Source of the DNA: Bdellovibrionales bacterium
Lineage (GTDB): Bacteria > Bdellovibrionota > UBA1018 > CAIMNF01
Reading direction: 5' to 3'
Length of the DNA stretch: 64,000 nucleotides
Assembly: GCA_947372355.1 (NCBI GenBank)
Contig: CANBTI010000001.1
Location: 18,296 to 82,295, forward strand
The translations under genes were made by a program, and so were the position numbers. Positions 6,216-63,322 of the stretch are shown one piece after another (position 1 is the stretch's first letter; every line of letters starts with the position of its first letter). The notes below the pieces were generated by a model, which ran no database searches, was not told the origin of the DNA, and was given only the letters and a program-made list of their open reading frames with translations.

Positions 6216-6283
6216 CTTACTTATAAATATCAAATACTTATTTTTCTTGCAATGTCATAGGCAAAATCGTTTAATGAAACAAA

Positions 6284-6982
6284 ATGAGTGCATTTTCAGA
6301 CTTAGAAGCAGCGGGAAAGTATAAAGAGGCAATAGCCCTCCTTCAACAAAATCCCACTTACGATGCTAATTACTTTTTTAATTTAGGGGTATTATTTGGC
6401 AAGGATCAACAAGCAGGTCTAGCTGTGGCTTATTTGGAAAAATCTAACCATCTCAGACCACATGACCCTGAAATTCTTAAAAATCTTAAGATTGCTCAAC
6501 CTCAACTTAAACAGCAACTGTTGGACAATAAGGCGCAAATCACCGAATTAGACGGCGCATCCAACTCACTTGAAAAGTTTGCAGATCGAATACAGCAGGA
6601 TGAAATTCTAGGGGTCATCGGGCTGGTGATGCTCATTGTTTCGTTGCTATGGATACGTGCATATTTAAAGACACGCAACATCACAAAAACCTTTTTAAAA
6701 CCATCTGGCTGGTTTGGCGCACTGGCCGTAGTTCTCTCTTTTGCTTTTTATGGTGTTCATAGAGCTGGCAGCTCAAACCCACCGGCACTACTTTTAATGA
6801 AACAACCACTCAGGAGCGGTCCGGGTATGAATTATCCAGAAATTGTCTCACTTGATGCTGGAATCAAGGTAAGAATGGTTGGCTCATCCATTACCCTAAA
6901 TGAAACAGAGGGTTGGCAAAAAATTCGTTACAATCATGATTTAACAGCCTGGATTCCGCTCTCCAGTTTACTCCCACTGTAG
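6284..6982 (+). CDS. Membrane protein with TPR-like N-terminus, two TM helices and a C-terminal SH3b-like domain
   Basis: Hydrophobic segments GVIGLVMLIVSLLWI and WFGALAVVLSFAFYGV. C-terminal GWQKIRYNHDLTAWIP resembles bacterial SH3. Confidence 0.4.
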   Translation: MSAFSDLEAAGKYKEAIALLQQNPTYDANYFFNLGVLFGKDQQAGLAVAYLEKSNHLRPHDPEILKNLKIAQPQLKQQLLDNKAQITELDGASNSLEKFADRIQQDEILGVIGLVMLIVSLLWIRAYLKTRNITKTFLKPSGWFGALAVVLSFAFYGVHRAGSSNPPALLLMKQPLRSGPGMNYPEIVSLDAGIKVRMVGSSITLNETEGWQKIRYNHDLTAWIPLSSLLPL

Positions 6983-6991
6983 TATAAAGGT

Positions 6992-7636
6992 ATGATGAAA
7001 AAACATATGAGATTAATTCCAATTTTTATTCTAAGTCTCGCGCTTGTTTTTCAAGCTGGCTGTTCATCAAAAAAAGTAAATGAGAACGATCCAAAAGAAA
7101 TGTTTAATGATGCAGAAGCCGACATTAAAAATGATCGCTATCTTCTGGCCTTGGATAAACTAAGAGTTATCAAAAGTAAATTTGCTTACTCTAGTTATGG
7201 TGCATTAGCTCAATTAAAAATTGCAGATGTTTTTTTCTTACAAGAATCTTATCCAGAAGCTGCTTCATCTTTTGAAACTTTTGTTGAACTCTTTCCAAAG
7301 CATGAGAAGGCATCGTACGCGCTTTTTAAAGCTGGTGAATCTCAATTCTTGGATATTCCTTCAAATATTGCTCGCGATCTAAAATCTGCAGAAAGTGCAA
7401 TTCAAACTTTAGATCTATACGCCAGTAAATATCCAACAGGAGAACACCTTCAAAAAGCCCTCCAAATGAGACAACTGGCTTTTGATCGTTTAGCAGAAAA
7501 AGAACTGAGTATCGCAGAATTTTACATCAAAAGAAAAAAACCAGATTCCGCTAGATTAAGACTTAATAAAATTCTAGATAATTTCAGCAAATCTTCTTCA
7601 GCAGAAAAAGCCAAAGAACTTTTAAAATCACTTTAA
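6992..7636 (+). CDS. TPR lipoprotein, BamD (YfiO)-like outer-membrane assembly factor
   Basis: Lipobox LVFQAGC. TPR-like repeats with a BamD-like pattern (YALFKAGESQF..., AEFYIKRKKPDSA). Confidence 0.45.
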   Translation: MMKKHMRLIPIFILSLALVFQAGCSSKKVNENDPKEMFNDAEADIKNDRYLLALDKLRVIKSKFAYSSYGALAQLKIADVFFLQESYPEAASSFETFVELFPKHEKASYALFKAGESQFLDIPSNIARDLKSAESAIQTLDLYASKYPTGEHLQKALQMRQLAFDRLAEKELSIAEFYIKRKKPDSARLRLNKILDNFSKSSSAEKAKELLKSL

Positions 7637-7641
7637 ACACT

Positions 7642-8331
7642 ATGATCTCTATTGATGAAATTCATCAGAAAATAAAAGATCGCGATTATCACGGAGCTGA
7701 TTCGTTGATTGCTCTCGGCATTAAGCATGAGCCTGATAATGCAGATCTATATTATCTTCGAGGTTTACTTCGGAGCTATCAGGGAAAACTAACTCTCTCC
7801 ATTGAAGATCTTAAATATTGCCTTAAAACGGATTCTAAACACACAGACGCAGCAGTGTGTTTAAGCATCATTTTAAATGATATTGGTCATTATGAAGAAG
7901 CAAAAGTTATTTTTGATCGAGCAAACCAAAGTGTATTTTTAAAACAAACTGGCGATGACACTCAAGTTGACCAAAAGTTTGCTGTTAAACATTTTGAACT
8001 TGGAGATTTATATTTTCGTCATCGACGCTTTGATGAAGCAATTGAAGAGTACAATAAGGCAATTATTTTAGATCCTGCCAGTACAGAGACTAGAGTGAAA
8101 CGGGCAAAGGCTTTTGCTAAAAAAGGTTTTCTCACCAGAGCCATTCAAGATTTGCAGCAATTAAAAATTGAGCGTCCAAATAGTACGATGGTTGGAGTTC
8201 AGCTGGGCTTATTACACTACAGCCAAGGAAATGTACTTGATGCTCAAATTGAATGGGATTCGGTTTTAGAAAACGATCCTGTAAATCGCGAAGCCATTGC
8301 CTACTTAGAGCTGATTAAAAAATTAGATTAA
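7642..8331 (+). CDS. TPR-repeat protein
   Basis: Multiple TPR-like helical repeats (YYLRGLL..., AIEEYNKAIILDP...). Confidence 0.45.
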   Translation: MISIDEIHQKIKDRDYHGADSLIALGIKHEPDNADLYYLRGLLRSYQGKLTLSIEDLKYCLKTDSKHTDAAVCLSIILNDIGHYEEAKVIFDRANQSVFLKQTGDDTQVDQKFAVKHFELGDLYFRHRRFDEAIEEYNKAIILDPASTETRVKRAKAFAKKGFLTRAIQDLQQLKIERPNSTMVGVQLGLLHYSQGNVLDAQIEWDSVLENDPVNREAIAYLELIKKLD

Positions 8332-10331: not shown

Positions 10332-11759
10332 TTACCCTCTTAACCTTAGTACAGTATCTAGCATTTCATCTGCCGTTTTAATTACTTTTGCTGAAGCATC
10401 AAATGCATGCTGAAATTGCATTAAATTCGTAGTTTCCTCATCGATCGAAACACCTGAAGTTTGTTCTCTCACTTTTCCAAGCTGAGCCATAATGCTTCTA
10501 TTTTGAGATAGAGTTTCGTTATTACGGGCATTCGTTACACCAATATCACTTACGATCGAGTTATAAAAATCGTCTGCAGTAGTGCGCCCGCCATTGAACA
10601 AATGAACATTTTGAAGGTTTGAAATTGCAAGTGCGTTGCGATTATCTCCCGGAGCATCTGGCTGAAGTGCGATTGCGATGTTTCCTACCGAGGAATGAAT
10701 GTCTTGTGACAATGCAAGTCTCTGAGCTGCTCCCTCTGGTCCATCCATTGGAGCAAAAAAACTGATTCCAGTTTTGCCGTCTGCCGTAAATCCCTTTTCA
10801 TGAAGTTCATTCACCGAACTGGCAACCGAAAATGCAAGTTGATCTAAACGATCTAAAACCATTGAAATGGATTTATCACGAGTTTCAATCAATGCACCTA
10901 ATTTACCATTTTTAAAACGATCAGTAAGATATTGAGTGCTGTGAGGTGAGCGAGCAATTTGTAATGAATTTGCAACACTTCCTTGATCCTCTTGAGCTGG
11001 TGCACGTCCCACATGATAAGATTCAAAATTTACACCCGTTACAATTGGTCCAACACCGCGAATGTCTACGTTCACCATTCCGCTGTTATCTTTAGTTACA
11101 TTTAAATCAACTAGTGTATTCATTTTTTTGATCACCATATCTCGGCGATCTTGTAAATCGTTGGCATCATTGCCTTGAATTTCAGCTACATGAATACGGT
11201 TATTCAATTCTGCTAGTTCTTTACCAAATGAAGTGAGCTCCTTCATGTTTCCATCAACACGGTTATCAACATGATTACGAATTTGTTCAACTTCTGTGCG
11301 AATTCTTCTAAAATCACCCACCATCGCTTGAGAAGATTCACGCACCGCTTGTCTTACTGCTTCACTAGATGGTTCACTAGAGAGCTTTCTAAAATCGTTA
11401 AAAAACTTTGCGACCAAGCGATTGAGTCCATCACCATTCATTTCATTGAAAACATCTTCAACTTGTCCTAAAAAAACTTGTTTTTCTTCGTTATAGGAAA
11501 GATCTCTCCCACCTTCACGAAGTTGTTTTTCAATATAATTATCGTTAATTCTTTCAATGCGAGAAAGCTTAGAGCCTTGGCCGTAGTAAGGACCACCTTG
11601 TCCAGCAATTTGATTTGTTACTTGAGCTTCAGAAACCGCACGTTGACGTGAAAATCCCTCAGTACCAGCATTCGAGATATTATGACCAGCGGTTGCGATT
11701 CCTGCTTTCGCAGTCGTCATTCCCGATTTTCCTGATTGAAAAACATTCAACAAGGCCAT
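10332..11759 (-). CDS. flgK: Flagellar hook-associated protein 1, FlgK
   Basis: N-terminus MALLNVFQSGKSGM...NISNAGTEGFSRQRA. C-terminal conserved helix. Confidence 0.8.
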   Translation of the reverse strand: MALLNVFQSGKSGMTTAKAGIATAGHNISNAGTEGFSRQRAVSEAQVTNQIAGQGGPYYGQGSKLSRIERINDNYIEKQLREGGRDLSYNEEKQVFLGQVEDVFNEMNGDGLNRLVAKFFNDFRKLSSEPSSEAVRQAVRESSQAMVGDFRRIRTEVEQIRNHVDNRVDGNMKELTSFGKELAELNNRIHVAEIQGNDANDLQDRRDMVIKKMNTLVDLNVTKDNSGMVNVDIRGVGPIVTGVNFESYHVGRAPAQEDQGSVANSLQIARSPHSTQYLTDRFKNGKLGALIETRDKSISMVLDRLDQLAFSVASSVNELHEKGFTADGKTGISFFAPMDGPEGAAQRLALSQDIHSSVGNIAIALQPDAPGDNRNALAISNLQNVHLFNGGRTTADDFYNSIVSDIGVTNARNNETLSQNRSIMAQLGKVREQTSGVSIDEETTNLMQFQHAFDASAKVIKTADEMLDTVLRLRG

Positions 11760-11765
11760 TTAAGT

Positions 11766-12308
11766 TTATACCTCTCTCGAAATTAATCTTGGACCATGCT
11801 CGTTCGCTGATGCTGTATTTTTTTGTCCCTGTTGGTTATAGGTTCTTGCTTGATGTGTGGTTTCACCGAAAATGTTTCTCTTCATATTATCAATATGCTG
11901 AAGAGACGCATTCACAAGGTTTCCATTCACTTCGTTTTGTTTTTTAATTCTTTCTACTAATAAAATTAAAACACTCAAATCAGATTGAAGTCTGCTCGAA
12001 ATTTCAAGATCATTGGATTGAAAGTGCAAAATTAATTCACGTAAGGACGGAGTTTTTGTTTCTAAATTTTGTTCTTGTGCTATTGCATACACAATCGACT
12101 GACGACTCATTTCAGATTGATGAATCCAATGAATCAAAGCTTCTTTTGCTGCTGCTGCTTCATAAGTAGCCTTAACGTCTGCATTGGTAATTGCTTCGTT
12201 TTCTGATTTAACTACATCGTTCAATTGTCGGTGTAACCCAATCAAATCCTGTAAGGATCCGTGAAGTTTTTCCGATAATTTTTCCGATAATTTTTTTTCT
12301 GTTTCCAT
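11766..12308 (-). CDS. FlgN-like flagellar chaperone (putative)
   Basis: Helical coiled-coil protein of about 180 aa directly upstream of flgK. Start taken at METEKK. Contains a KLSEKLSEKL duplicated motif. Confidence 0.4.
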   Translation of the reverse strand: METEKKLSEKLSEKLHGSLQDLIGLHRQLNDVVKSENEAITNADVKATYEAAAAKEALIHWIHQSEMSRQSIVYAIAQEQNLETKTPSLRELILHFQSNDLEISSRLQSDLSVLILLVERIKKQNEVNGNLVNASLQHIDNMKRNIFGETTHQARTYNQQGQKNTASANEHGPRLISREV

Positions 12309-12359
12309 TTTCATCCTCACCCGCATCCTGCTCGGAGGTTAATTGGTTTTGTTAAAAAC

Positions 12360-12686
12360 TTATGCGCCAGCTAAACGAATGTGATCATCCACTAGTTTAT
12401 CAGCAATTGCATCTGCTCCAACATTGTATTTTTTATTTTGAATGCGCTCTTTGAGTTCAGCGATTTTTGCTTCGCGCACATCAGGAGTATCTGCCGCGAT
12501 TTGCTTTGCTTTCGCCATATCTTTTGCTTTTGAAGAAATCTCTGCGTTTGCAGATTCACTCTTCGGAGCTGAAATAGATTCTTCTGATTTATTTTCATAA
12601 CCAGAGATTTTTGACTTTTCTATTTTTTTGGTATCTGAACTTTGAATGCCTGAACTACCGGCTGCAATGTTTGAATTAATCTTCAT
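12360..12686 (-). CDS. flgM: Anti-sigma-28 factor FlgM
   Basis: C-terminus KIAELKERIQNKKYNVGADAIADKLVDDHIRLAG matches the FlgM sigma-28-binding region. Start taken at MKINSNIAAG (the ORF track's upstream extension is unlikely). Confidence 0.65.
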   Translation of the reverse strand: MKINSNIAAGSSGIQSSDTKKIEKSKISGYENKSEESISAPKSESANAEISSKAKDMAKAKQIAADTPDVREAKIAELKERIQNKKYNVGADAIADKLVDDHIRLAGA

Positions 12687-13035
12687 GTGTACCTCCTGTA
12701 CCTTGAGACCTATTATTATTATACTTTGGCTGTGGTTGTGAGCGCAACCAATAATCAATAATTTGTTGAGAAAGTCCTAAAGAATTGCCCTTTGCTGAAA
12801 TATCCGCATACTCTTGGTCAAGCATTCCCTGATAAATATCTGACGCTGAATTATGCAATGAAAACTCGTTTGGTTCGCCTTGTGTTTTTTTCATCGCGTC
12901 CATCATCATAGAAGTGAATTGAGCCTCTAAACCCTCGGCAGCCTTACGCATTTCCGGTGAGATCCTAGGATCGTCATTATTTTGATGCTGCGTTTTAATC
13001 GGTGGAATTTGGGGGGGGGTTGAGGAGGGTTTCAT
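12676..13035 (-). CDS. Flagellar rod-binding protein (FlgJ N-terminal-domain-like)
   Basis: AEGLEAQFTSMMMDAMKKT...SDIYQGMLDQEYADISAKGNSLGLSQQI matches the rod-binding (FlgJ N-terminal) family. No muramidase domain. Overlaps flgM by 11 nt. Confidence 0.6.
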   Translation of the reverse strand: MKPSSTPPQIPPIKTQHQNNDDPRISPEMRKAAEGLEAQFTSMMMDAMKKTQGEPNEFSLHNSASDIYQGMLDQEYADISAKGNSLGLSQQIIDYWLRSQPQPKYNNNRSQGTGGTHED

Positions 13036-48088: not shown

Positions 48089-49477
48089 ATGAAAAAAATT
48101 GATCTAAAACTATTCAGTGTTCTGATGCTCCTTGCTTTTGTAATTTACTTTGCTCAAACCAGAGATTTCGGATTGATGTTTGACGGTCTTACTTATTCAA
48201 CTCTTGCTAAAAATATTTTAAGAACTGGGGATTGGAAAGTTCTTCATTATGACCTTAGGCAATATCCTGATGCATATTACCACCCACCCCTAGCAATGTG
48301 GATTCAGGCATTGATCTATAAGTACTTCGGGAGCGCTGAACCGATCTCTCGCATTTTTCCTGCAACATGTGCACTCCTCACTACAGGTATTTTGTTTTTA
48401 TTTACTCGCGCTCGTTTTGGAATAACAGCGGCGTTTTGGGCAACGATCGCACTCATCACTTCAACTCGATTCATTAAATGGGGAACTAATTTCTATCTTG
48501 ATGGAATTGCAGGATTCTTTAATTTTACAGGCTTTATTATTTGGATGTGGATGATCACTAAAACATCAAAAAACAATAAAACAGATCCATTGATTGCTGG
48601 ATTTGCAGGTGTATTTTTAGGATTAGGATTCATGACGAAAGGTGTTGTGGCATTTCCTATTTTAGTGGCGGTATTGGTTTCAACTCTACTTTTTTTAAGC
48701 TTAAGAAACCTAATATTAATGTGTGTTTTTACTATAGGTGCCCTATTACCCATACTTGCCTGGATTCAACTCGGTGATGGATTGCATTACTTAGAAATGT
48801 ATTTTAAAACATCTGCTTTTGGTCGCTCAAGTGAGTTGAATTTTCGACCATGGCAAAACATTCGAAACATTTGGATCCCATGGTGGCCTATTTTTGCCAT
48901 TAGTATATTCACAGCTTTTAGAAAATTTATAAAAAGAGAAATGATCATCCCTTCGCTTTGTGCTGCTGCATTAGCAATGCCTTCGGCACTCACCTTTAGT
49001 GCTAATTATTTCGAACATTACATTACACCATTTTTTCCTTTTGCGTCTCTTCTGGTTGGAATTCAAATTTCAAATTGGATAAGAAAAGATTACGTAGAGA
49101 AATACTTAAAGTTTACCTTTGGTGCTGCCGTTGTTCTTGCTGTATTACTCGCTACCATTGCGCCGAATGTAAACAAACAAAAAGACATCCCTTCGATGTT
49201 ATGGATTCGTGAAATAAACACTCTTCCAAAAGAGAAGTTAATCACAATTAGAAAAATCGTCTTCACCGAAAAAAGTGCTGAAATATGGCTAAATTTAGCA
49301 ACAATTCTTGCTAAAACTAATTGGCAAGCAATTGGATTGTTTGGGGTGAATGAAAAGGCTGAGGCAAACACTATTCTAGTTACAAAAGCTGGTGAAATTC
49401 CTGATTCTTCTTGGAAAAAAATTCCTTACCTTTATGTAGAAGGAAATGATTTTTATTCTTCTGAAAATAATTTTTAG
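48089..49477 (+). CDS. Polytopic membrane glycosyltransferase, GT39/GT83 (ArnT/PMT_2)-like
   Basis: Multiple TM helices. N-terminal pattern FAQTRDFGLMFDGLTYSTLAKNILRTGDW...YYHPPLAMWIQAL is typical of ArnT/PMT-family enzymes. Confidence 0.5.
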   Translation: MKKIDLKLFSVLMLLAFVIYFAQTRDFGLMFDGLTYSTLAKNILRTGDWKVLHYDLRQYPDAYYHPPLAMWIQALIYKYFGSAEPISRIFPATCALLTTGILFLFTRARFGITAAFWATIALITSTRFIKWGTNFYLDGIAGFFNFTGFIIWMWMITKTSKNNKTDPLIAGFAGVFLGLGFMTKGVVAFPILVAVLVSTLLFLSLRNLILMCVFTIGALLPILAWIQLGDGLHYLEMYFKTSAFGRSSELNFRPWQNIRNIWIPWWPIFAISIFTAFRKFIKREMIIPSLCAAALAMPSALTFSANYFEHYITPFFPFASLLVGIQISNWIRKDYVEKYLKFTFGAAVVLAVLLATIAPNVNKQKDIPSMLWIREINTLPKEKLITIRKIVFTEKSAEIWLNLATILAKTNWQAIGLFGVNEKAEANTILVTKAGEIPDSSWKKIPYLYVEGNDFYSSENNF

Positions 49478-53768: not shown

Positions 53769-53918
53769 TTATTTACCAGCAACAGTAGGAACGAGGCGTT
53801 TACGGCCGCGAGCACGACGACGAGCTAATATTTTTTTTCCACCGGCAGTCGCTAAACGAGTGCGGAAGCCATGGGTGTTAGTTCTCTTCTTACGAGATGG
53901 TTGATACGTACGTTTCAT
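53769..53918 (-). CDS. rpmH: 50S ribosomal protein L34
   Basis: Manually translated (below the ORF-track size cutoff): [49 protein letters not shown]. Confidence 0.9.
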
Positions 53919-54002
53919 AGTCGTAATGACTTATCGGATAAGTGGCCTCATTGTCAATCCCACAAGTTCATGTTAGTTAAGTACGTCGCAGGTAGTATAA
54001 CC

Positions 54003-55466
54003 ATGAATGATTTAAATCTTTGGGCAACAGCATATCGTCAGATTCTCCAAAACCACGCAAATCCAACCGAAATGAAGTTTTGGCTTGATGCGTTAAATTG
54101 GGGTAAGCTCGAACCTATGGCTTCTGGTAAGGTGCATATATTTCTCACAGCACCCAGCGTATTTTATGCAAACTTTATTAATCAACAATTTAAGGCCGAA
54201 ATCGAGAGCGCTACCTCTCAAATTTTAGGTAAATCCTGTGAAGTTTCAATCGCCGTATTAGAATCTAAGCCCGCTGAAGAAGTAGAAGAAGCAATTATAT
54301 CTATCAGTAATACTTCAGTAAATAACACTTTTGAAAACCCTTTGTCTCCACCTACCGCTTCTGATTTTACTCCAGCAATGGCTCAATCTAATCAAAGTTC
54401 CCCTTCTCCAGGTTTTGTGAATCGTGGATCTCATAAATCAAATGTAATCATTAATGATTTTTTAGACCCAACTTTAACCTTTGATAACTACATCATGGGG
54501 CCTTCAAATCAATTTGCTTATGCATCCGCTTTTTCAACTTCAGAAAAACCAGCCGTTCAATACAATCCACTTTTTATTTATGGCCCTCCAGGAGTTGGAA
54601 AAACCCATCTATTGCATGCTTTAGGTAATCAAATAAAAAAGAAAAATCCTCATATTCGGGCTTATTTTGTTTCGGCTGAAAAATTTGTGAACGAATTTAT
54701 CGAAAGCATACAACATAAAAATCCAGGCGATTTTAGGGCTAAATACCGCGATAATGTTGATCTTCTTCTCATCGACGATATTCAATTTATCGTGGGTAAG
54801 GATCGTTCAGAAGAAGAGTTTATCCATACCTTCAATACATTACACAGTCTTAAAAAAATGATTGTTCTTACTTCTGATAAAGCGCCAAAAGACATCGATG
54901 GTTTAGAGGACCGAATTCGTACTCGTTTTGAAATGGGACTGGTTGCTGATATTCGCCCGCCAGAAATTGAAACTCGCATTGCAATTTTAAAAGCAAAAGC
55001 GGAAGCAGACGACATGTATTTGCCAGATGATGTTGCAACATTTTTAGGTACCTATGTAAAAGATACGGTCAGAAACCTTCATGGTGCTTTAGTAAAGCTT
55101 CAACAATATGCTTCACTCACAGGCTCAGAAATAACTTTAGATTTAGCTAAGCAAGTTTTACAAAACTCCATTCCTGAAGAAGGACAAGAATACACAGTTG
55201 AAATAATACTCAATGCTGTTTGTAAGCACTTTAATCTTAAGATGAAAGAACTAAAGGGAACATCCAGAGCAAAACAGTTTTCTATGCCTCGCCAAATTGC
55301 CATGTATCTGATTAGAAAATACGCAAATTTAGGATTTAGAGAAGTAAGTCAGATTTTTGACAAAGATCACTCCACCGCAGTTCATGCTTATCAAAAAATC
55401 GAACTGGAGATGGAATCTGACCCTGAACTAAAGAGAAATGTGGAAACCATTAGAGAGCAGCTGTAA
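54003..55466 (+). CDS. dnaA: Chromosomal replication initiator DnaA
   Basis: AAA+ Walker A GPPGVGKTHLLHA, sensor motifs, and a C-terminal DNA-binding domain. Start taken at MNDLNLW. The ORF-track N-terminal extension runs antisense through rpmH and is rejected. Confidence 0.9.
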   Translation: MNDLNLWATAYRQILQNHANPTEMKFWLDALNWGKLEPMASGKVHIFLTAPSVFYANFINQQFKAEIESATSQILGKSCEVSIAVLESKPAEEVEEAIISISNTSVNNTFENPLSPPTASDFTPAMAQSNQSSPSPGFVNRGSHKSNVIINDFLDPTLTFDNYIMGPSNQFAYASAFSTSEKPAVQYNPLFIYGPPGVGKTHLLHALGNQIKKKNPHIRAYFVSAEKFVNEFIESIQHKNPGDFRAKYRDNVDLLLIDDIQFIVGKDRSEEEFIHTFNTLHSLKKMIVLTSDKAPKDIDGLEDRIRTRFEMGLVADIRPPEIETRIAILKAKAEADDMYLPDDVATFLGTYVKDTVRNLHGALVKLQQYASLTGSEITLDLAKQVLQNSIPEEGQEYTVEIILNAVCKHFNLKMKELKGTSRAKQFSMPRQIAMYLIRKYANLGFREVSQIFDKDHSTAVHAYQKIELEMESDPELKRNVETIREQL

Positions 55467-55596
55467 AAAGCGTCAAATTAGCCACATTAATCAAATAAAC
55501 TATAATAAAATAAAATAATTTCATTTAAATTTCTTACAAAACGTAAGAACCTATTATTAGGCCTGGGGCGCAAGGATGCTTCACGGGAGGATAATT

Positions 55597-58500
55597 TTGG
55601 TTTCAAGGATGAAGATTTTTAAAAAAGTTTCTACACTTTTCTCAGTGTTATTCATAACTCTGAGCCCTTCTACGTCCTTTGCTAACTGGACACGTTATCA
55701 AAATTATAAAATAAAATTAGACGTTCCAACAGGCTGGAAAATTGAGCGTGATCTTTTTGGAATGCCAATTACCGTATTGGGTCCTGAAAGAAATGGAGAG
55801 CGTGCAGTACTGAGTGTTCAGCACACCCCCGTTTTTGGTTTAGAATTTAATCATCAAAATATAGTTAAAACTAAAAATCAATACTATGAAGGAAGAAAAA
55901 AATGGGTTGATTCACTTGAAGACGCTTCTTTTTTAAGTGAAATTCCATACCAACACATAAAGCAAGAAAATGGGAACGACGGCTTTGAAATGGGTTTTAG
56001 ATACCATGTCAGAAACCTCGACTTAGAAGAAAAAAGTATTCAATTGAATTGTGGAAATCGACTTTTTTTAATTAAAACTCTTTCAAGCAATAAAATTCCT
56101 GAAGCAGATACCGCTCAATTAGCAAAATTAGTGAATGAGTTAGATTGCGTTTCTACCACTTCAAAAGATGGCGCTTATGAACCAAGCGTTCTTCAAGATT
56201 TTGATCGTAAATTTAAGGATCAAATATCTGGAACTTCACCTTGGCCTACAAAAGAGCAAATTAAAGATTCTGGCACACCTGAAAAAGCAGTCATGCTTGA
56301 AGCATTGGTAGAGTTCTATAAAAATTACGAAAATTCTGGAGGAGAAGATTCTTATTCATACAATCGTAATCCAGTTAAAGATCAATATTTTGCAAAAATT
56401 AAAGATAGAACAGATCAAATTTTTTCAATCTTCTTATCTAAAGCGTCTGCAAAAGATGGTTATGATTGTTTTTTTGGTGGTTGGCCAAGTAAATTTATAA
56501 AAAAGAATGGTGTAGCTACCTGTGGTTATCCATGGGAAACAAATTCAGATTATTCAAAAAACAATTCTGGCTGTGGAGAAGGAAAACTAGGCTGTAACCC
56601 TTCTCTATTTGGATCAAATATTTGTGTTGATGTAAGCAATAGCGGCGAACGATCACATGCTACTCTTTCTTGCGAAATGGGTTTTCGCTCTAGTGGTAAA
56701 AGTTACGAAGATGTTGTTAAATCAGCTGATTTTGATCAATCCGTTCTAAATAACACTCTAAACTCAGCAAAAGAAGTGTGCAGTCAGGAACCATATACCT
56801 CAGCAAATTATGGTTTATGTTCAACCCTTAAAGAAAAATTAGGAATCAGTATCTCATCCGGAAAACATGCTCAAGATGAATCCGATGTAAAATTTATTAA
56901 TGGCATGGAAGAAATGAAGCCAGAAAATTTTGATGAATATGTAAAGGCTACAGAAAAAAACTATAAAGAATTTGAAGCTCGATGCATCGACGAAAAGGGT
57001 GATCTTAAAACAAATGTTGAAGGATGTTTAGAGGATCATTTAGCCATTTTAAATGACTTAGAAAAAATTGATAAAAGATCAAAAGATATTGGGCAAGAAT
57101 TACAAGAAGAAGATGCACCAAACTCAATCAATAATGGAAATTGTTCAAAGGCAGACTGTAGTTCACCCACTGTTGAAAGTGTTCAACCTAAAAAGGATGA
57201 ACCATCAAATGGTAAGTGTTCAGTTCAAGAGGAAAAAAGAAAAAAAGAAAAAGAATGTAATTGGTCTAAGGGTATGTTCATGGCAGGAAGTTGTGCTTGG
57301 AATGTAATCACTTCAATGGTGAGTTCATTGTGGGGAACAATCAAAGCAATAGGTGAGCTTGCGTGGGATGGTGTGAAGTGGGTTGGGAATAAATCTGTTC
57401 AGGGTGCCAAATGGCTTGCTAGTTTGGTTGGTTATGAAGATGAATCATCTAAAAAATTAAATACAGCTGCACAAACGAGTAATAGCGCAATTGAATCTTT
57501 CAAAAAAGATCCAATGGGATCTGCTATCAATTTTTTCAAAAGTATCTATGATGGTGTTGTAAATTTTGTTTCTACTGATGTTGCCTGCGAAAAATGGTCT
57601 GGCGTTCCACACAATTCAACATGTTTATTGCCTGCAAGTGGTTGGAAATGTATGCCTTGCATGGATCGAATGGATACCGTTTGTTCAACAGTAGGATATG
57701 TTGCGGCTGAATTTCTACCTGCTTTCTTCACCGGTGGAGCAACTTCTGCTTTAAAAGGATCTGCAATCGCTGCAAAAGTAGGTGGATATCTTGGTAAAGT
57801 GAGTAAGCTGGGGAAACTCACTCGACTAGAAGCTGATATTATAAAACTTACGAGTAAAGCAACTAAAGTAGAAAGATACGGCTTAAGAGCAGCTAAATAT
57901 GAATCAGAAGTTTTAAAAGCAGAAATCGGTATTGCTGGAAATTTAAGTAAAACACAAAAAATTATTGGAAAAGTTTATAATGTAAGCCGCTGGCCAGTTA
58001 AACAATTCAATAAAATAAAGAGTGCATATACCCGTGCAAAAAATGTATTAACTGGGTTTAAATCTAAGGCCTTTGGTTCTGTTAAAAATACAATTGAAGG
58101 ATTACAGAGACTACGAAAAAAATATTATGTTGTTAAAGCTGGTTCATGGGTAGTTGAAAACACTGTTGTTCAACCATTAAAATTAGCAGCAAAAATAGCA
58201 ACCGCTCCTATTCGTTATCCAATGAGATGGACAAATAGTTATGTCAGGACACAAGCGAAGATATATAAGGTAGGACTAAGATTTGGAGAAAAAAGATTTA
58301 ATGATGTGTTGGTAAAATCAGCAAGCATGAGTAAGTATCCAACCTTAGCTAAAAACATAGCTTTATATAGCTCTATTTCTAAATATCCTGCATTTGGCTC
58401 TCATATGTTGGATGAGTTTAGAGAAAGACTCAGCATGAAAGATGATAACAATCCAAATATGTTTTGGAAATCATCCCATGAAATTGAAGTACAAGCTAAA

Positions 58501-59121
58501 CTTGATGGTAAAAATCCTGAGGAAGTAAAATCAATTCTAAAGAAAAACAGGATCGATTTAATGACTAATACAATCGTTATGGATGCCTTAAATGCGGGTA
58601 AAGATCCAAAAGAAGTGGATTTAAAATACCTTTCAAAAATTAGAGGGATTTCCAATGAAGAAATTCGTGTGGAATCAATCGATTCAAGACTTCAAGCAAT
58701 TGCCAATGGAACTTTGCCAACTTTCACTCAAAGTGATTATGATGCAATAGCAAAAATTAATAAGATCAGTTCAACAGAAGCAAAAAATCAAATTCAAAAT
58801 GAAGTTAAAATTCAAGTTGCTTCATCAAAGGTAATCAATCTTTTGAATGAGGGTAAAAAACCAGAAGATGAGGCATTGAAAAATCTAGCATCACTCAAAA
58901 AAGTGAACGTTGATGAACTGGTAATTGAATCCATTGATTATAGAATTAATTCTGTATTGGGCGGAGTAAAACCAAAGTTTTCTAGTTTTGATTATGAAAC
59001 ATGGGCAAGAGTAAATCATGTCTCTATTGAAGAGGCTAAAAAGTATATCGATTCTGAAGTGCAGGATTCATTAAATATGATTTCTGATCCTTCATCAACT
59101 AATGGAGCAAAAACGCAATGA
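55597..59121 (+). CDS. Large secreted Cys-rich hypothetical protein (cassette gene A, about 1175 aa)
   Basis: Probable TTG start at 55597, 6 nt after the SD GGGAGGA. Signal peptide ...LFITLSPSTSFA. The N-terminal domain carries a DVPTGWK motif. The middle is cysteine-rich. The C-terminus carries two tandem repeats of about 70 aa. Confidence 0.55.
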   Translation: MVSRMKIFKKVSTLFSVLFITLSPSTSFANWTRYQNYKIKLDVPTGWKIERDLFGMPITVLGPERNGERAVLSVQHTPVFGLEFNHQNIVKTKNQYYEGRKKWVDSLEDASFLSEIPYQHIKQENGNDGFEMGFRYHVRNLDLEEKSIQLNCGNRLFLIKTLSSNKIPEADTAQLAKLVNELDCVSTTSKDGAYEPSVLQDFDRKFKDQISGTSPWPTKEQIKDSGTPEKAVMLEALVEFYKNYENSGGEDSYSYNRNPVKDQYFAKIKDRTDQIFSIFLSKASAKDGYDCFFGGWPSKFIKKNGVATCGYPWETNSDYSKNNSGCGEGKLGCNPSLFGSNICVDVSNSGERSHATLSCEMGFRSSGKSYEDVVKSADFDQSVLNNTLNSAKEVCSQEPYTSANYGLCSTLKEKLGISISSGKHAQDESDVKFINGMEEMKPENFDEYVKATEKNYKEFEARCIDEKGDLKTNVEGCLEDHLAILNDLEKIDKRSKDIGQELQEEDAPNSINNGNCSKADCSSPTVESVQPKKDEPSNGKCSVQEEKRKKEKECNWSKGMFMAGSCAWNVITSMVSSLWGTIKAIGELAWDGVKWVGNKSVQGAKWLASLVGYEDESSKKLNTAAQTSNSAIESFKKDPMGSAINFFKSIYDGVVNFVSTDVACEKWSGVPHNSTCLLPASGWKCMPCMDRMDTVCSTVGYVAAEFLPAFFTGGATSALKGSAIAAKVGGYLGKVSKLGKLTRLEADIIKLTSKATKVERYGLRAAKYESEVLKAEIGIAGNLSKTQKIIGKVYNVSRWPVKQFNKIKSAYTRAKNVLTGFKSKAFGSVKNTIEGLQRLRKKYYVVKAGSWVVENTVVQPLKLAAKIATAPIRYPMRWTNSYVRTQAKIYKVGLRFGEKRFNDVLVKSASMSKYPTLAKNIALYSSISKYPAFGSHMLDEFRERLSMKDDNNPNMFWKSSHEIEVQAKLDGKNPEEVKSILKKNRIDLMTNTIVMDALNAGKDPKEVDLKYLSKIRGISNEEIRVESIDSRLQAIANGTLPTFTQSDYDAIAKINKISSTEAKNQIQNEVKIQVASSKVINLLNEGKKPEDEALKNLASLKKVNVDELVIESIDYRINSVLGGVKPKFSSFDYETWARVNHVSIEEAKKYIDSEVQDSLNMISDPSSTNGAKTQ

Positions 59122-59654
59122 AAACAATACTGTCAATTTTATTAGTCATCTGTGGTGCAAAAGCATTTGGTGAATCTAAAAATTACAACATTCAAAATCA
59201 AAAAATTACGATTGATGTGCCAACAGGATGGAAAGATGTTGAAGATTTTGCTGGCAGTCCACTCACCTTTTTTGGGCCTGAAAATAAAGACGGACCAAGA
59301 ACAGTAGTAACCATTTCACCAACTGGACAAGAAGATAAAAATCATTTTTTCGCTGATATGAAAAAAAATATCGCTGGTTATAAAGTTGGACGTGAGGATT
59401 GGTTAAAAGGGAATTTTGGAACCTCCATTTCTTACGATAAATATAAGGAAGAAAAATGGACTGGGATAGAAGTAGCTCGCGAATTTGGTTATCATTACGA
59501 ACTACCAAGCGGAAAGTTTTATGAAAGATCCGTTTATGTGATGTGCGGTGGTAATAAACTTGTGTACATCAAATCATTAGTTCCAGAACAGTTTGAATCA
59601 ACTCATAATTCGTTAGTAGAAAAATCAATTAAAAGCTTAGGGTGCGCAAAATGA
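59118..59654 (+). CDS. Secreted small protein paralogous to the N-terminal domain of cassette gene A (cassette gene B)
   Basis: Signal peptide MKTILSILLVICGAKAFG. Shares DVPTGWK..GPE..C-G-N-L..IK-L...LGC blocks with residues about 40-190 of gene A. Its start overlaps the gene A stop (ATGA). Confidence 0.55.
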   Translation: MKTILSILLVICGAKAFGESKNYNIQNQKITIDVPTGWKDVEDFAGSPLTFFGPENKDGPRTVVTISPTGQEDKNHFFADMKKNIAGYKVGREDWLKGNFGTSISYDKYKEEKWTGIEVAREFGYHYELPSGKFYERSVYVMCGGNKLVYIKSLVPEQFESTHNSLVEKSIKSLGCAK

Positions 59655-61762
59655 AAAATACAGATCAACAAAACGGAAAAATAATCATGAACTCATTATC
59701 AAAATTATTGGCTTTTGCAATTTGTTTACAGCTAACGGTAGGAATTTATCCAGTTCAAAACCACATGGCTTATGCGCAAGATGATCGTAGTATCAGTACT
59801 AATGAAAGTAAGGCAAATCGTGGGCCTGCTTCAGATAATTTGAATATGGATGCTAATGAAGCTAATGATCATTCTAAAAATTATATTAAATTATTTAATG
59901 ATCAATGTGTTGGTTCAAATGGAAAAATAAAAGGCAGTACTGCTTTTATGCATGATAAGGAAATCGGTTCTAGTGAAGAACCAAGAATGTATAATTGTTC
60001 TGAAGCGGCAACAATAATTCAAAAAATTATTATACCAGGAATGAATGATATTTCTGAAGAAGTAAAACATTCAAAAATAAATCCAAACTGCCCTACTTGT
60101 GGAATTCCAAACCAAGATGAAGATTCTGTTAAAAATGGTCAGCTGGTTTCGGGATCATGTTCTGCAGAAGAACAAAAGAAGTTTGCTAAACAAGATTGTT
60201 CCTTTGGTTGCAATATTTTATATACCATTGGTTCACAAGATAAAAGTTGCCCTAAATCTTCTGGTATTTCTGGAAAATGCGCACTTGAAATTTCAAAAGG
60301 CGTTTTAAAAGGTATTTATGATGTTCTTGCTTTTCCATTCATTATGGTAAAAGACGCCGGTGTTTGGACATATAATAAAATTTTTGGCAAATCCGAGAAT
60401 GAAACTACAGAAAAATCACAAGTTCTTAGTGGTTTAACAGATCAAGATATTAAGGATGGGGAAAAAAATCCTGAAAAATTAAAACAAACTTTACTTCAAA
60501 GATCTGCAAAATTCTTTAATGATCTTGGAAAAGCAATTATTGGTTATCCCGAGTATGAGGAAAAATCAAAATGTGCTGATTGTGCTGCTAAAGCAGATCT
60601 TATGTGCGGTGTTATAGGTAATACTAGCGGATTTTTAATCACAATGTTTGGTAATGGAGCAATTTTTGGTGCTACTGAAGGTATTGCTGAAAGAATTGCA
60701 TCAAAACTTGTTAAGGTATCAAAAGGTACAGGCAAATTTGCTAGTATTGCTAGTAAAACTATACTCGTAGCTGAAAAAACTAGTTTAGCTGCTACTAAAG
60801 TTGGTAAATTTGTTTCTAAGCCATTTATTCGTTTTGGTGAAGTTGTGGCGAGTGGAGCCTCAAAAGTTTCTGTTTCAAGTTTAAAATGGTGGGAGTCTTT
60901 TAAATCAAAAAAATTATATGAAAATTTAATTAAATTTAAAGATTCTAGATCTTTAAAAGTTGTATCTAACTCAATCCCAGGAAAAATAACACTTTCGATC
61001 GGGCGTGGAGTTAGTAATAGTTTTGAAAAAGCAGGTGTTTTCGTTAAAAAAATTGGTAAGGTTGCTAGTAATATTCAAGAAACTACTCATGATTTTGGTC
61101 TTGGATTAACTAATTCAAAGTTATTAAGAGCTCAAAAAATTAATAAACTTAGATCAGCTAAGGCTGCAGCTAATGCTACAAATGAAGCTCTTCGTGGAGT
61201 GGATGAACTTAAAGTAGTGAAAGATGCTTCTGAAGGCAGAACTGCTGAACAGTGGACTGATTTAAAACAAAAAGCTTCCAATGAACTTCAGGGCTTAAAA
61301 GTGAAACATTTGGATGATGTTGAAAATGCGGTGCCAGCCGAATTTGAAATTAATGCAGGAAAAGAAAAAAGTATTCTTGTTGAAACTTCAAAAGGAACGC
61401 GTGAATTAAAAATCGCAAAACCTGCTGATGTTGAAAGCATCCATACTTATCAAGATGGAAAATTAGCCATCGTTCAACATAGAGATGGTTCATACATCAT
61501 TCATGATATGGATGCCGGTTCTCACCTCACCCAAGTTCCAAAAGGAAAAGAAGAGTTTGTAGATGCTCTTCTTGGTAAGAAAACTAAGAACTTTGATGAT
61601 CTTGAAGGCATGTCTTACACACAAGTGAAGACAAACTTAAAAATCAACGGAACTAAGTTTACTGAAGAAGTAGATGCAACTGGAGCTAAAACAATGAAAA
61701 TTGAAACTCCAAATGGATGTAATCCGAAATCACTCAGTTTTGGTGTGGATAAAGCGATCTAA
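59642..61762 (+). CDS. Secreted Cys-rich hypothetical protein paralogous to the central module of cassette gene A (cassette gene C)
   Basis: Signal-like LSKLLAFAICLQLTVGIYPV (alternative start MNSL at 59687). Shares the blocks C-x2-C-x5-C-x2-(I/V)G...F..G(A/G)..G...I..K and C..G..G.CA...G.L.GIYDVLAFP with gene A. Overlaps gene B by 13 nt. Confidence 0.5.
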   Translation: MRKMKNTDQQNGKIIMNSLSKLLAFAICLQLTVGIYPVQNHMAYAQDDRSISTNESKANRGPASDNLNMDANEANDHSKNYIKLFNDQCVGSNGKIKGSTAFMHDKEIGSSEEPRMYNCSEAATIIQKIIIPGMNDISEEVKHSKINPNCPTCGIPNQDEDSVKNGQLVSGSCSAEEQKKFAKQDCSFGCNILYTIGSQDKSCPKSSGISGKCALEISKGVLKGIYDVLAFPFIMVKDAGVWTYNKIFGKSENETTEKSQVLSGLTDQDIKDGEKNPEKLKQTLLQRSAKFFNDLGKAIIGYPEYEEKSKCADCAAKADLMCGVIGNTSGFLITMFGNGAIFGATEGIAERIASKLVKVSKGTGKFASIASKTILVAEKTSLAATKVGKFVSKPFIRFGEVVASGASKVSVSSLKWWESFKSKKLYENLIKFKDSRSLKVVSNSIPGKITLSIGRGVSNSFEKAGVFVKKIGKVASNIQETTHDFGLGLTNSKLLRAQKINKLRSAKAAANATNEALRGVDELKVVKDASEGRTAEQWTDLKQKASNELQGLKVKHLDDVENAVPAEFEINAGKEKSILVETSKGTRELKIAKPADVESIHTYQDGKLAIVQHRDGSYIIHDMDAGSHLTQVPKGKEEFVDALLGKKTKNFDDLEGMSYTQVKTNLKINGTKFTEEVDATGAKTMKIETPNGCNPKSLSFGVDKAI

Positions 61763-62218
61763 TACTGGTTAATTAATATTATCTATAAGTAACAAATAGT
61801 TACGTTATAATTAATATTTCATCCCCCAGTTAGTGTTCTTTTATTTTCTTATAACCTGTTTTTGAACCATGAATTAACCGCTTATCCACATTCATTTGTG
61901 GATAGTTATGGTGGATAATTGTTTTATTGAACCTATTAAATTCAGTTTAATTATTATTTTATTTAGTAATTGGATACTTTTGGTGAATAAGCTGGTGAAT
62001 GACCATATGCTTCTTGGTTTTAATGGATTTTTCTTTTTTATCCCCAAACTTTGAATTAATATTCACCTTTGTTTTAAACCATTATAAAACATAGATTCAT
62101 GTTTAATTTTAATTAGTTAGAGGGTTTTCCACCTAATTCACACTACTATGACTACTATGATCTTTATATATAAATACTTCTATGAGAGTAATTTGAGATT
62201 CGAGGTTGTGGATAAGAT
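61763..62218. other. Candidate chromosomal replication origin (oriC): DnaA-box cluster plus AT-rich unwinding region
   Basis: TTATCCACA at 61882-61890. Reverse-orientation boxes TGTGGATAG (61897-61905), GTGGATAAT (61911-61919) and TGTGGATAA (62207-62215). Near-box TTATCCCCA at 62037-62045. Flanked by very AT-rich stretches. Confidence 0.7.
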
Positions 62219-63322
62219 ATGAAATTTAATATTCAAAGAGATCATCTTTTAAGTGCATTACAAAAAATTTCTTCAGTGATTGAAAAGAAACATACCATGG
62301 AGATTCTGGGTAATATTCTTTTTGAAGCAAAGAATGATCAACTCACTCTTTCAGGAACAGATCTTGAAGCAGGAATTCAAATCACTTTAGATGCACAAAT
62401 TCAAGAGCCAGGTAAGTTAACACTTTCTACAAAAAATATTACCGACATCACTAAAGAATTACCAAACCAAGTGATGCACTTTAATTTAAAGCCAAATCAT
62501 TGGGTTGAAATTACATGCTCTAAAGCTAGATTCAACGTTGTGAGTATTTCAGCAGAGGGTTATCCTAATCTTCCTCTCTTTGAAGAAAAAAATTATATCT
62601 ACGCTAATTCAGAACGATTAAATGAAATGATCGAAAAAACTGAGTTTGCAGTTTCAACCGATGCTACTCGTTATCATTTGAATGGAGTTTATTTTGAATT
62701 ACTTCCTTCTGGAATGATTCGAATGACAGCAACCGATGGTCATCGTCTTTCTTATATTGATCATGAAGTTTTTACTAAACCCATTGATTTAAAACGTGGA
62801 GTGGTAATTCCTAAAAAAGGATTAACAGAGCTTCATAAAATGCTTCAAGGAACTAAAAATATAGGAATCGCTTTTGAGAAGGGTTATTTATATGCCAAAT
62901 CAGAAGGTGCTTTTTTATTCATTCGTTTGATTGAAGCTGACTACCCTGATTACCGACAAGTCATTCCTCAAAATTTAGATAAAACTGCAATTCTAAAACG
63001 TGAAGATCTTTTAGGTGCTTTAAAAAGAGTTTCCCTCATGGCTCATGAAAAAAGCAAAGGGGTTAAAATCAGTGTTCAAAATGATTTAATGACCGTTGCT
63101 TCTTCAAATCCTGATATGGGTGAAGCCCGTGATGAAATTAGTATGAAATATCAAGGTGAAGCAGTTGAAATTGGATTCAATGCTAAATACATTATGGAAT
63201 GTCTTGAAGTGATGAAGGATCCAGAAATTGAATTACACTTTAAAGACAAAACCAAACCAGGTTTAATTCAATCGGTAGCGCATAAAAATCATTGTTATGT
63301 AATTATGCCGATGCGTATCTAG
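62219..63322 (+). CDS. dnaN: DNA polymerase III beta sliding clamp
   Basis: N-terminus MKFNIQRDHLLSALQKISSVIEKKHTMEILGNILFEA. Three-domain clamp of 367 aa. C-terminus ...VIMPMRI. Confidence 0.9.
   Translation: MKFNIQRDHLLSALQKISSVIEKKHTMEILGNILFEAKNDQLTLSGTDLEAGIQITLDAQIQEPGKLTLSTKNITDITKELPNQVMHFNLKPNHWVEITCSKARFNVVSISAEGYPNLPLFEEKNYIYANSERLNEMIEKTEFAVSTDATRYHLNGVYFELLPSGMIRMTATDGHRLSYIDHEVFTKPIDLKRGVVIPKKGLTELHKMLQGTKNIGIAFEKGYLYAKSEGAFLFIRLIEADYPDYRQVIPQNLDKTAILKREDLLGALKRVSLMAHEKSKGVKISVQNDLMTVASSNPDMGEARDEISMKYQGEAVEIGFNAKYIMECLEVMKDPEIELHFKDKTKPGLIQSVAHKNHCYVIMPMRI

Follow-up and report, generated by a model that had tools for sequence, protein, structure and literature searches.

A fast-evolving cassette of predicted exported proteins separates dnaA from the putative replication origin in uncultured Bdellovibrionales

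What can occupy the junction between a replication initiator gene and its origin? In Bdellovibrio the canonical gene order at this site is rnpA-rpmH-dnaA-oriC-dnaN-recF-gyrB (PMC5124646), oriC being the replication origin. A stretch of 64,000 nucleotides from a Bdellovibrionales bacterium (contig CANBTI010000001.1 of assembly GCA_947372355.1, positions 18,296 to 82,295; hereafter the window) belongs to a clade that otherwise keeps this order, except that dnaA, which ends at 55466, and dnaN, which starts at 62219, lie 6.75 kb apart, and the interval is filled by three tightly packed co-oriented genes, here termed P1, P2 and P3. We asked what this cassette encodes, how it is distributed and has evolved among relatives, and whether its position bears on replication. 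The reading towards which we lean, if only slightly, is that the cassette is a lineage-specific, fast-evolving island of secreted effectors with a PsbP-fold accessory protein, lodged in a dispensable dnaA-oriC spacer and without a direct role in replication.

The broken adjacency described in the first-pass annotation of this DNA is borne out by the domains of the two flanking genes: dnaA (487 amino acids from its most likely start; 54003..55466, + strand) carries Bac_DnaA (Pfam, E 6e-61) and Bac_DnaA_C (E 2e-22), and dnaN (367 amino acids; 62219..63322, + strand), the right conserved flank, carries all three beta-clamp domains. Between them lie P1 (1170 amino acids; 55609..59121, with alternative starts at 55597, TTG, and 55576, ATG), P2 (178 amino acids; 59118..59654) and P3 (703 amino acids; 59651..61762, with alternative starts at 59642 and 59684), all on the + strand and all predicted to be exported. 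Their description as co-oriented and translationally coupled agrees with the ATGA overlaps read from the sequence, in which the ATG of P2 overlaps the P1 stop codon at 59118 and that of P3 overlaps the P2 stop codon at 59651.

The N-termini of P1, P2 and P3 each display a basic n-region, a hydrophobic stretch and an AxA-type site (SFA-N, AKA-F and AYA-Q, respectively); these Sec-type features, judged by eye, are conserved in homologues and uphold the earlier assignment of signal peptides to all three proteins, and no further 19-residue window in P1-P3 is hydrophobic enough for a membrane helix. P1 contains 22 cysteines, about 20 of them invariant in 19 homologues, and P3 contains 14, while mature P2 has 2, so that the label cysteine-rich, originally given to all three, suits P1 and P3 but not P2. 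The two cysteines of P2-type proteins form a conserved pair, suggesting a disulfide bond. Searches of P1-P3 against Pfam, NCBIfam and PADLOC yielded nothing significant, as expected from the initial description of proteins lacking recognisable catalytic or housekeeping domains; profiles of both families against PDB sequences gave nothing below E 0.06, and the C-terminal parts of P1 and P3 have no Pfam, NCBIfam, PDB-sequence or fold match.

Comparison of the proteins with one another reveals a common architecture. In P1, the signal peptide is followed by a PsbP-fold domain (module A, residues ~26-182), a cysteine-rich region with the signature 'YDCFFGGWPS...CNPSLFG' (module B, ~285-420), a region with the core 'DVxC.KWSG.PH..C...C..C...GY..E..P...TGG' (module C, ~540-740), a lysine-rich stretch (~700-900) and helical tandem repeats (~955-1160). 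P3 consists of a cysteine-rich N-terminal half with a shortened module C, then a lysine-rich stretch, and a beta-rich C-terminal domain (~520-700). P2 is homologous to module A of P1 (30% identity, E 1e-19), and a second homology, across module C, links the central part of P1 with the N-terminal half of P3 (E 8e-8); the cassette thus consists of two copies of one unit, a small domain plus a large cysteine-rich protein, fused in P1 and split in P2 and P3. One weak match to a phage tail tape-measure family in PHROGs (E 2.7e-4) was also observed at P1 residues 563-749 (~57295-57855); it covers the hydrophobic, glycine-rich part of module C and may be compositional. A tape-measure link does not generalise, as 1 of 31 relatives matches a tape-measure family, and it was rejected.

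A word-indexed protein search returned 18, 18 and 9 homologues for P1, P2 and P3, which strongly under-reports the family: an exhaustive hidden Markov model (HMM) search with the P1 family profile recovered 875 proteins at E <= 1e-3 and 617 at E <= 1e-10. In this profile module A spans positions 1-185, module B ~250-420 and module C ~440-800, the last with the core 'D(V/I)FC.KWSG.PH.S.C..P.....C.SC....G.C..G....E..PAFLTGG', conserved across the superfamily, and a lysine-rich stretch after it; neither module B nor module C has a Pfam or NCBIfam model. Among 31 long members, Fic/DOC domains were found in eight, RamC_N in two, and PI3_PI4_kinase and Gln_deamidase_2 in one each, at the C-terminal end; ten proteins with module B only include five with an ATLF domain (anthrax-lethal-factor-type metalloprotease) and one with YkuD_2 (L,D-transpeptidase). 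Conserved modules B or C are therefore joined to differing C-terminal toxin-type domains among homologues. The few source names available read 'Fic family protein [Bacteriovoracaceae bacterium]', 'Deltaproteobacteria bacterium' and 'bacterium'. These searches, which the first-pass annotation had proposed, leave the three window proteins without a known domain but place them in a large, modular and undescribed superfamily, other members of which are shown by their sequences to carry toxin-type enzyme domains; the original verdict of unknown function still holds as regards domain matches, and it is narrowed by the enzyme domains that follow the same modules elsewhere and by the PsbP-type fold described below.

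The pairing of a small with a large protein recurs outside the origin region. A P2-like gene lies directly beside a large module-C gene in three further loci (L025, L026 and L027; loci of relatives are numbered L001 to L032) and is fused to it in L028, in no case near dnaA; the L026 member sits among metabolic genes, and those of L028 and L032 are also away from dnaA. The P2-like proteins can be aligned to one profile (E 1e-28 to 1e-68) although their partners bear differing C-terminal domains (beta-rich, Fic, PGDYG), while a stand-alone protein of module B plus ATLF has no P2-like neighbour. In L025 (1-17600), a distant member of 1111 amino acids and its divergent P2-like neighbour are located inside a flagellar cluster, between fliJ and fliK/flgD/flgE. 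In L027 a separate, divergent 767-amino-acid Fic-domain protein is encoded at 5553-7856 (- strand), directly upstream of the P2-like gene and its 1061-amino-acid core-module partner.

Structure prediction gives the small module a fold. An AlphaFold model of P1 built from a 19-sequence alignment has a mean predicted local distance difference test (pLDDT) score of 65, and residues 26-182 reach 85-89. Foldseek matched this region, module A, to 3lyd (E 3.6e-5) and then to PsbP, LpqN, MTC28, EagT6, SciW, DcrB and Tsi3, with Apa also among the envelope proteins matched. The N-terminus of P1 is thereby shown, at the level of a predicted model, to have a PsbP/Mog1 fold, and a PsbP/DcrB-type fold is inferred for P2 from its homology to module A. 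Module A and P2 have no Pfam match at E <= 1 to the curated PsbP, DUF1795 or DcrB families, and the only trace in NCBIfam is T7SS_Rv3446c (E 0.17). Outside module A, P1 gave generic helical fold matches, none of them significant; the P3 model is poor (pLDDT 50), and Foldseek found nothing for it below E 0.2.

How is the cassette distributed among relatives? A DnaA-based scan of one genome per species identified 16 related loci, all from uncultured Bdellovibrionales or Oligoflexia-type metagenome-assembled genomes (MAGs), and further loci were added by look-ups of homologous proteins; L021/L022 and L023/L024 are duplicate contigs representing one genome each. Across the 15 readable loci, window included, the gap between dnaA and dnaN holds three genes in five, two genes in five, a different membrane-protein gene in one and nothing in four. 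The order P1-P2-P3 is found in the window, L001, L020, L021/L022 and L023/L024, and in the later additions L029, L030 and L031. The two-gene loci (L010, L011, L012, L013 and L015) carry only the split unit, a P2-like gene plus a P3-like gene of 951 amino acids whose C-terminal domain is conserved with that of the three-gene loci. In the empty loci (L002, L003, L005 and L007) the dnaA-dnaN distance is 470-640 bp, and L009 holds an inverted P1 plus P2 on a contig that ends before dnaN. The cassette points the same way as dnaA in every locus but one, and all P1-type homologues with a readable contig are located at the dnaA-dnaN site. In a neighbour-joining tree of DnaA plus DnaN, the three-gene loci are paraphyletic to two empty loci and the two-gene loci form a clade.

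The synteny comparison thus finds the cassette at the same site in other genomes, so that it is not unique to the window, yet it is not universal either. Since related loci may hold two genes, another gene or none, this is not a case of the same genes with an assigned role in every relative, which the first-pass annotation had named as the outcome that would reduce the arrangement to ordinary lineage synteny. The variable gap, together with the confinement of P1 homologues to one site, marks the cassette as an old resident of the dnaA-oriC junction in this clade, one that can be dispensed with and has been lost or rearranged in places. That the site accepts different cargo is indicated by L008, where a single unrelated 455-amino-acid multipass membrane protein (11427-12794) takes the place of the cassette. 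The possibility that this gene is a relocated copy of a PMT_2-type gene of the window was rejected, as the two are not homologous. The spacer between P3 and the origin contains an extra small open reading frame (84-90 amino acids, - strand) in L020 (15841-16113) and L021 (15882-16136), absent from the window. The closest species-level relative in the collection is L001 (CALPVV020000009.1; DnaA 80%, DnaN 94%, three-gene cassette), which is labelled 'Nitrosovibrio sp. Nv4' but has an origin region of Bdellovibrionales type and is probably a mis-binned contig or a mislabelled MAG. Separation of dnaA from dnaN is modestly unusual for the order and commonplace among bacteria at large; literature searches turned up no account of the protein family or of this break in synteny.

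We next consider the origin, which had been proposed to lie after the cassette, directly upstream of dnaN. The P3-dnaN spacer is 456 bp long with 26.5% G+C, and the putative oriC (61744..62218) contains six DnaA boxes with at most one mismatch. In total, 6 of the 26 matches to TTATCCACA in the window (<=1 mismatch), including all three perfect ones, fall within 61744-62215 (472 bp), where ~0.19 would be expected (Poisson p ~6e-8), a cluster well above background; no such cluster is present upstream of dnaA. Alignment of 12 loci and blastn conservation across loci delimit a conserved core of ~65 bp (62120..62185, + strand), in which the DnaA box TTTTCCACC is followed by ATTCACA, the trio-like repeats ACTACTATGACTACTATGATC and the AT-rich tract TTTATATATA, a candidate unwinding element. 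This core is kept upstream of dnaN in 12/12 aligned loci with or without the cassette, and the spacer before dnaN is of similar length in both kinds of locus. The box cluster and the conserved AT-rich core support the proposed placement. One perfect box (TTATCCACA, - strand, 61744-61752) lies inside the last codons of P3 (...GVDKAI*), echoing the two DnaA boxes in the 3' end of dnaA in B. bacteriovorus (PMC5124646).

The GC-skew check that had been suggested for an origin at 61.8-62.2 kb did not single out that position: the minimum of the cumulative skew is at 54657, inside dnaA and 7.4 kb to the left of the putative oriC, not at 62 kb. The strong positive skew of the cassette vanishes at third codon positions and therefore reflects amino-acid composition, so that skew cannot place the origin more finely than ~8 kb (55 versus 62 kb), and the placement is supported by the boxes and the AT-rich core. 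The origin is thus, as a putative assignment from sequence features, an ordinary one of the dnaA-dnaN type that has been displaced from dnaA by the insert. It follows from the geometry that, with oriC to their right, dnaA and the cassette (8 kb) would face the leftward replication fork head-on.

Transcription from dnaA into the cassette is possible, because no intrinsic-terminator-like site was found on the + strand between 53700 and 63500, consistent with the earlier remark that no terminator is evident between dnaA and the cassette. The dnaA-P1 spacer (55467..55608, 142 bp) is AT-rich, contains a GGGAGG ribosome-binding site and has a promoter-like sigma-70 match (TAGCCA-16-TATAAT, 10/12 positions, 55479-55506) whose -35 element overlaps a one-mismatch DnaA box (55478-55486). 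Its sequence is not conserved in more distant relatives, and no conserved DnaA box or promoter was found in the corresponding spacers of relatives.

The cassette evolves rapidly. Nonsynonymous divergence (dN) from L030 and L031 is 0.20-0.29 for the cassette genes versus 0.03-0.16 for yidC, rnpA, dnaA and dnaN, with ratios of dN to synonymous divergence (dS) of 0.09-0.21 in these comparisons and 0.05-0.22 over all comparisons. The cassette genes are therefore real, under purifying selection and changing ~2-9 times faster than their neighbours. The closest genome is L029, with which the window shares 98-99.7% DNA identity in the flanks; identity drops to 85-94% in a block that extends from ~54.1 kb (inside dnaA) to ~61.4 kb, and to 67-71%, with indels, in the centre of P3 (60.3-61.2 kb); positions 54100-61400 of the window correspond to 8450-15750 of L029. 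dS against L029 is 0.056 for yidC, 0.060 for rnpA and 0.045 for dnaN, versus 0.40 for dnaA, 0.45 for P1, 0.32 for P2 and 0.62 for P3. As selection on the protein cannot raise dS, the simplest reading of these sequence differences is that homologous recombination brought in a diverged allele and that dnaA hitch-hiked along with it. Between L021 and L022 there is no difference.

How might such a cassette work? In the reading we favour, P1 and P3 would be exported through Sec and, as effectors or as binding proteins resembling effectors, would act outside the cytoplasm, with prey, competitors or the envelope as targets, as part of a predatory or antagonistic lifestyle. P2 and module A of P1 would serve as a periplasmic accessory protein, chaperone or adaptor that binds the conserved hydrophobic helix of module C; a chaperone is suggested because the small protein is conserved across payloads, is encoded upstream and can be fused N-terminally, while immunity proteins track the toxin domain. 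The location of the cassette probably matters only indirectly: being close to the origin, the genes may reach their highest dosage while the chromosome replicates, they might also be transcribed by read-through from dnaA, and the conserved flanks could act as arms for allele swapping by homologous recombination. The cassette is not evidence of a new replication mechanism.

Several observations weigh against this reading. Neither P1 nor P3 of the window has a recognisable enzymatic or toxin domain in Pfam or NCBIfam, and with no fold match beyond module A the case for effectors draws on shared modules rather than on activity; the model of P3 is too poor to help. The payload is not obviously polymorphic at the window locus, as judged from the conservation of the P3 C-terminal domain across two- and three-gene loci. 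No secretion machinery or delivery route beyond Sec was identified at the locus, the signal peptides were judged by eye, and source names cover few members of the superfamily. A PsbP fold also occurs in immunity proteins (Tsi3, TplEi) and in envelope lipoproteins, which leaves several roles for P2. Finally, the recombination signal comes from a single pair of metagenome assemblies, where a strain-chimeric contig could mimic it, and a second close pair, L011/L013, displays no local excess of divergence.

A bolder version of the effector reading, which we regard as doubtful, would make the locus an undescribed delivery system of predatory Bdellovibrionota, in which a Sec-exported, disulfide-locked module C core with a buried hydrophobic helix carries diverse enzymatic payloads into prey with the assistance of a PsbP-fold periplasmic chaperone. 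Capture beside oriC would then couple dosage and transcription to replication initiation, that is, to the onset of growth in prey, and alleles would be exchanged through the dnaA/rpmH and oriC/dnaN arms.

The alternative that survives best, though we give it limited credence, is that P1-P3 are not delivered but belong to the cell surface or the envelope, as adhesins, prey-recognition proteins or periplasmic scaffolds, and evolve fast because they face prey, phages or grazers, with P2 as an envelope-biogenesis helper of the DcrB/LpqN type. Each of the three proteins seems to be exported, contains many conserved cysteines and lacks a catalytic domain, the fold matches include the envelope proteins LpqN, DcrB, MTC28 and Apa, and both the helical tandem repeats of P1 and the beta-rich end of P3 are typical of binding modules; one relative, L025, is even found within a flagellar gene cluster. 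However, Fic, ATLF, kinase-like and deamidase domains, which are enzymes with targets inside other cells, follow these modules in many relatives, and no anchoring signal was seen in P1-P3, neither a lipobox conserved in homologues nor a membrane or beta-barrel segment.

It is improbable, in our estimate, that the locus is a classical toxin-immunity pair in which P2, like Tsi3 or TplEi, guards the periplasm of the producer from P3 and P1. Its export would suit a periplasmic immunity protein, and the small and large genes are tightly and recurrently paired. Against this, P2-like proteins remain alignable beside differing C-terminal domains, whereas immunity proteins normally co-vary with the toxin domain; P2 is encoded upstream of its partner; and the N-terminal fusion of a homologous domain in P1 and L028 suits a chaperone or adaptor better than an inhibitor.

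Equally improbable is that the cassette came as mobile-element cargo or through recent horizontal transfer and happened to land beside oriC. The patchy distribution, with presence/absence polymorphism at one site, would fit such an origin, as would the different gene in L008, the elevated-dS block from dnaA to P3 against the closest genome and the slightly lower G+C of the cassette (0.33-0.35 versus ~0.37 in the surroundings). However, no integrase- or transposase-like open reading frame, tRNA gene (within the window) or flanking direct repeat was found, which extends the earlier statement that no integrase or transposase marks the cassette, and PHROGs gave one weak match, in P1, and no other; repeats shared by the two spacers are short AT-rich chance matches. 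In addition, divergence of the cassette rises with that of the flanks across the window, L029, L030, L031 and L001, and the P1-type homologues are all found at this one locus. The lack of mobility genes, the parallel divergence and the single locus therefore agree better with long vertical inheritance at the site, accompanied by losses and by homologous exchange of alleles, than with site-specific mobility.

Very improbable, lastly, is a tie to replication, in which transcription from dnaA to oriC modulates or is modulated by origin firing, or the cassette is a selected spacer or insulator: it could appeal to the lack of a terminator-like site both from dnaA to the cassette and from P3 to the DnaA boxes, to the boxes in the last P3 codons and over the promoter-like -35 after dnaA, and to the prevailing co-orientation with dnaA, but the box after dnaA is not conserved, close relatives with no insert or an unrelated gene keep the same origin core, the cassette proteins are predicted to be exported, and homologous gene pairs lie far from dnaA in other genomes.

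The surroundings of the cassette are conventional. The window is identical to contig CANCOA010000003.1 of the MAG GCA_947379695.1. The left conserved flank consists of yidC, yidD, rnpA and rpmH on the - strand, and recF-gyrB-gyrA follow dnaN on the source contig. The rpmH gene (ribosomal protein L34, 49 amino acids; 53769..53918, - strand) is divergent from dnaA, and relatives have a 49-amino-acid Ribosomal_L34 gene at the same place. The longest dnaA open reading frame (531 amino acids, the call in the public record) includes an additional 53871-54002; the start is most likely 54003 rather than 53871, because the longer frame overlaps rpmH on the opposite strand and DnaA of relatives (L030, L031) has 487 amino acids. 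A start at 54003 leaves ~84 bp between rpmH and dnaA. An Rfam search of 53.3-62.6 kb returned only two sub-threshold chance matches. Further upstream, a PMT_2-type glycosyltransferase gene (48089-49477, + strand) stands alone in a run of - strand genes; L029 and L031 carry it too, whereas L030 lacks it at this position, another small presence/absence polymorphism.

Bdellovibrio-like predators are studied as living antibiotics, and few of their secreted weapons and little of the delivery of these are known. The superfamily defined here comprises more than 800 modular exported proteins without a curated model, some with Fic, protease, kinase-like, deamidase or cell-wall-modifying domains, and a recurrent PsbP-fold partner; it provides a concrete list of candidate effectors and a candidate chaperone-effector pair. 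At the origin itself, the dnaA-oriC junction of a dnaA-oriC-dnaN arrangement tolerates 2-7 kb of foreign genes while the ~65-bp core stays fixed beside dnaN, which helps to delimit the minimal origin, and the locus offers a natural case of transcription running into an origin and of head-on genes adjoining it. Nevertheless, the protein superfamily and its PsbP-fold partner are a more valuable lead than the broken adjacency.

Compared with known systems, the putative origin most resembles that of B. bacteriovorus (Makowski et al. 2016, PMC5124646). Both have a DnaA-box cluster and an AT-rich element between dnaA and dnaN, boxes that fit the consensus NN(A/T)TCCACA, and a box inside the 3' end of the upstream gene. 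In B. bacteriovorus, however, the spacer is ~250 bp, the upstream gene is dnaA and the organisation was shown experimentally (PMC5124646), whereas here it is read from sequence, dnaA and the box cluster are kept apart by 6.3 kb of unrelated genes, and P3 is the upstream gene that bears a box.

The small module compares with the PsbP/Mog1-fold set, which includes PsbP/CyanoP, DcrB, LpqN, MTC28, the Eag chaperones (DUF1795: EagT6, SciW, PA0094) and the immunity proteins Tsi3 and TplEi. As with the Eag chaperones, a small protein is encoded beside a large, effector-like protein with a hydrophobic helix. Unlike the members of these families, module A and P2 have no sequence membership in them, and identity in structural alignments is 6-11%; P2 bears a signal peptide, unlike the Eag chaperones, which are found in the cytoplasm and act together with prePAAR effectors of type VI secretion (T6SS). 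The partners of P2 likewise have signal peptides, and PAAR and Rhs domains are absent from them; no search for T6SS genes was made elsewhere in the genome.

The closest functional parallel may be with polymorphic toxin and effector systems, described by Zhang, Aravind and colleagues as multidomain toxins linked to Sec or to type V, VI or VII secretion (T5SS, T6SS, T7SS), with conserved N-terminal parts and swappable C-terminal toxin domains. Here, no described trafficking, pre-toxin or repeat domain corresponds to modules B and C, neither of the two large proteins of the window has a recognisable toxin domain, and no dedicated secretion system is linked to them. There is no cognate immunity gene downstream that co-varies with a toxin domain, as nothing lies between P3 and oriC; instead, the small partner is encoded upstream, is conserved whatever the payload, and in some cases forms part of the large protein by fusion. 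The likenesses are an N-terminal export signal, conserved N-terminal and central modules in hundreds of proteins, variable C-termini among relatives that include Fic, ATLF metalloprotease, glutamine deamidase and kinase-like domains, a small accessory gene adjoining a large one, fast evolution, and a signature of allele exchange in one genome pair. The cassette fits no described family, and by analogy it would work like a polymorphic toxin/effector locus equipped with an accessory protein.

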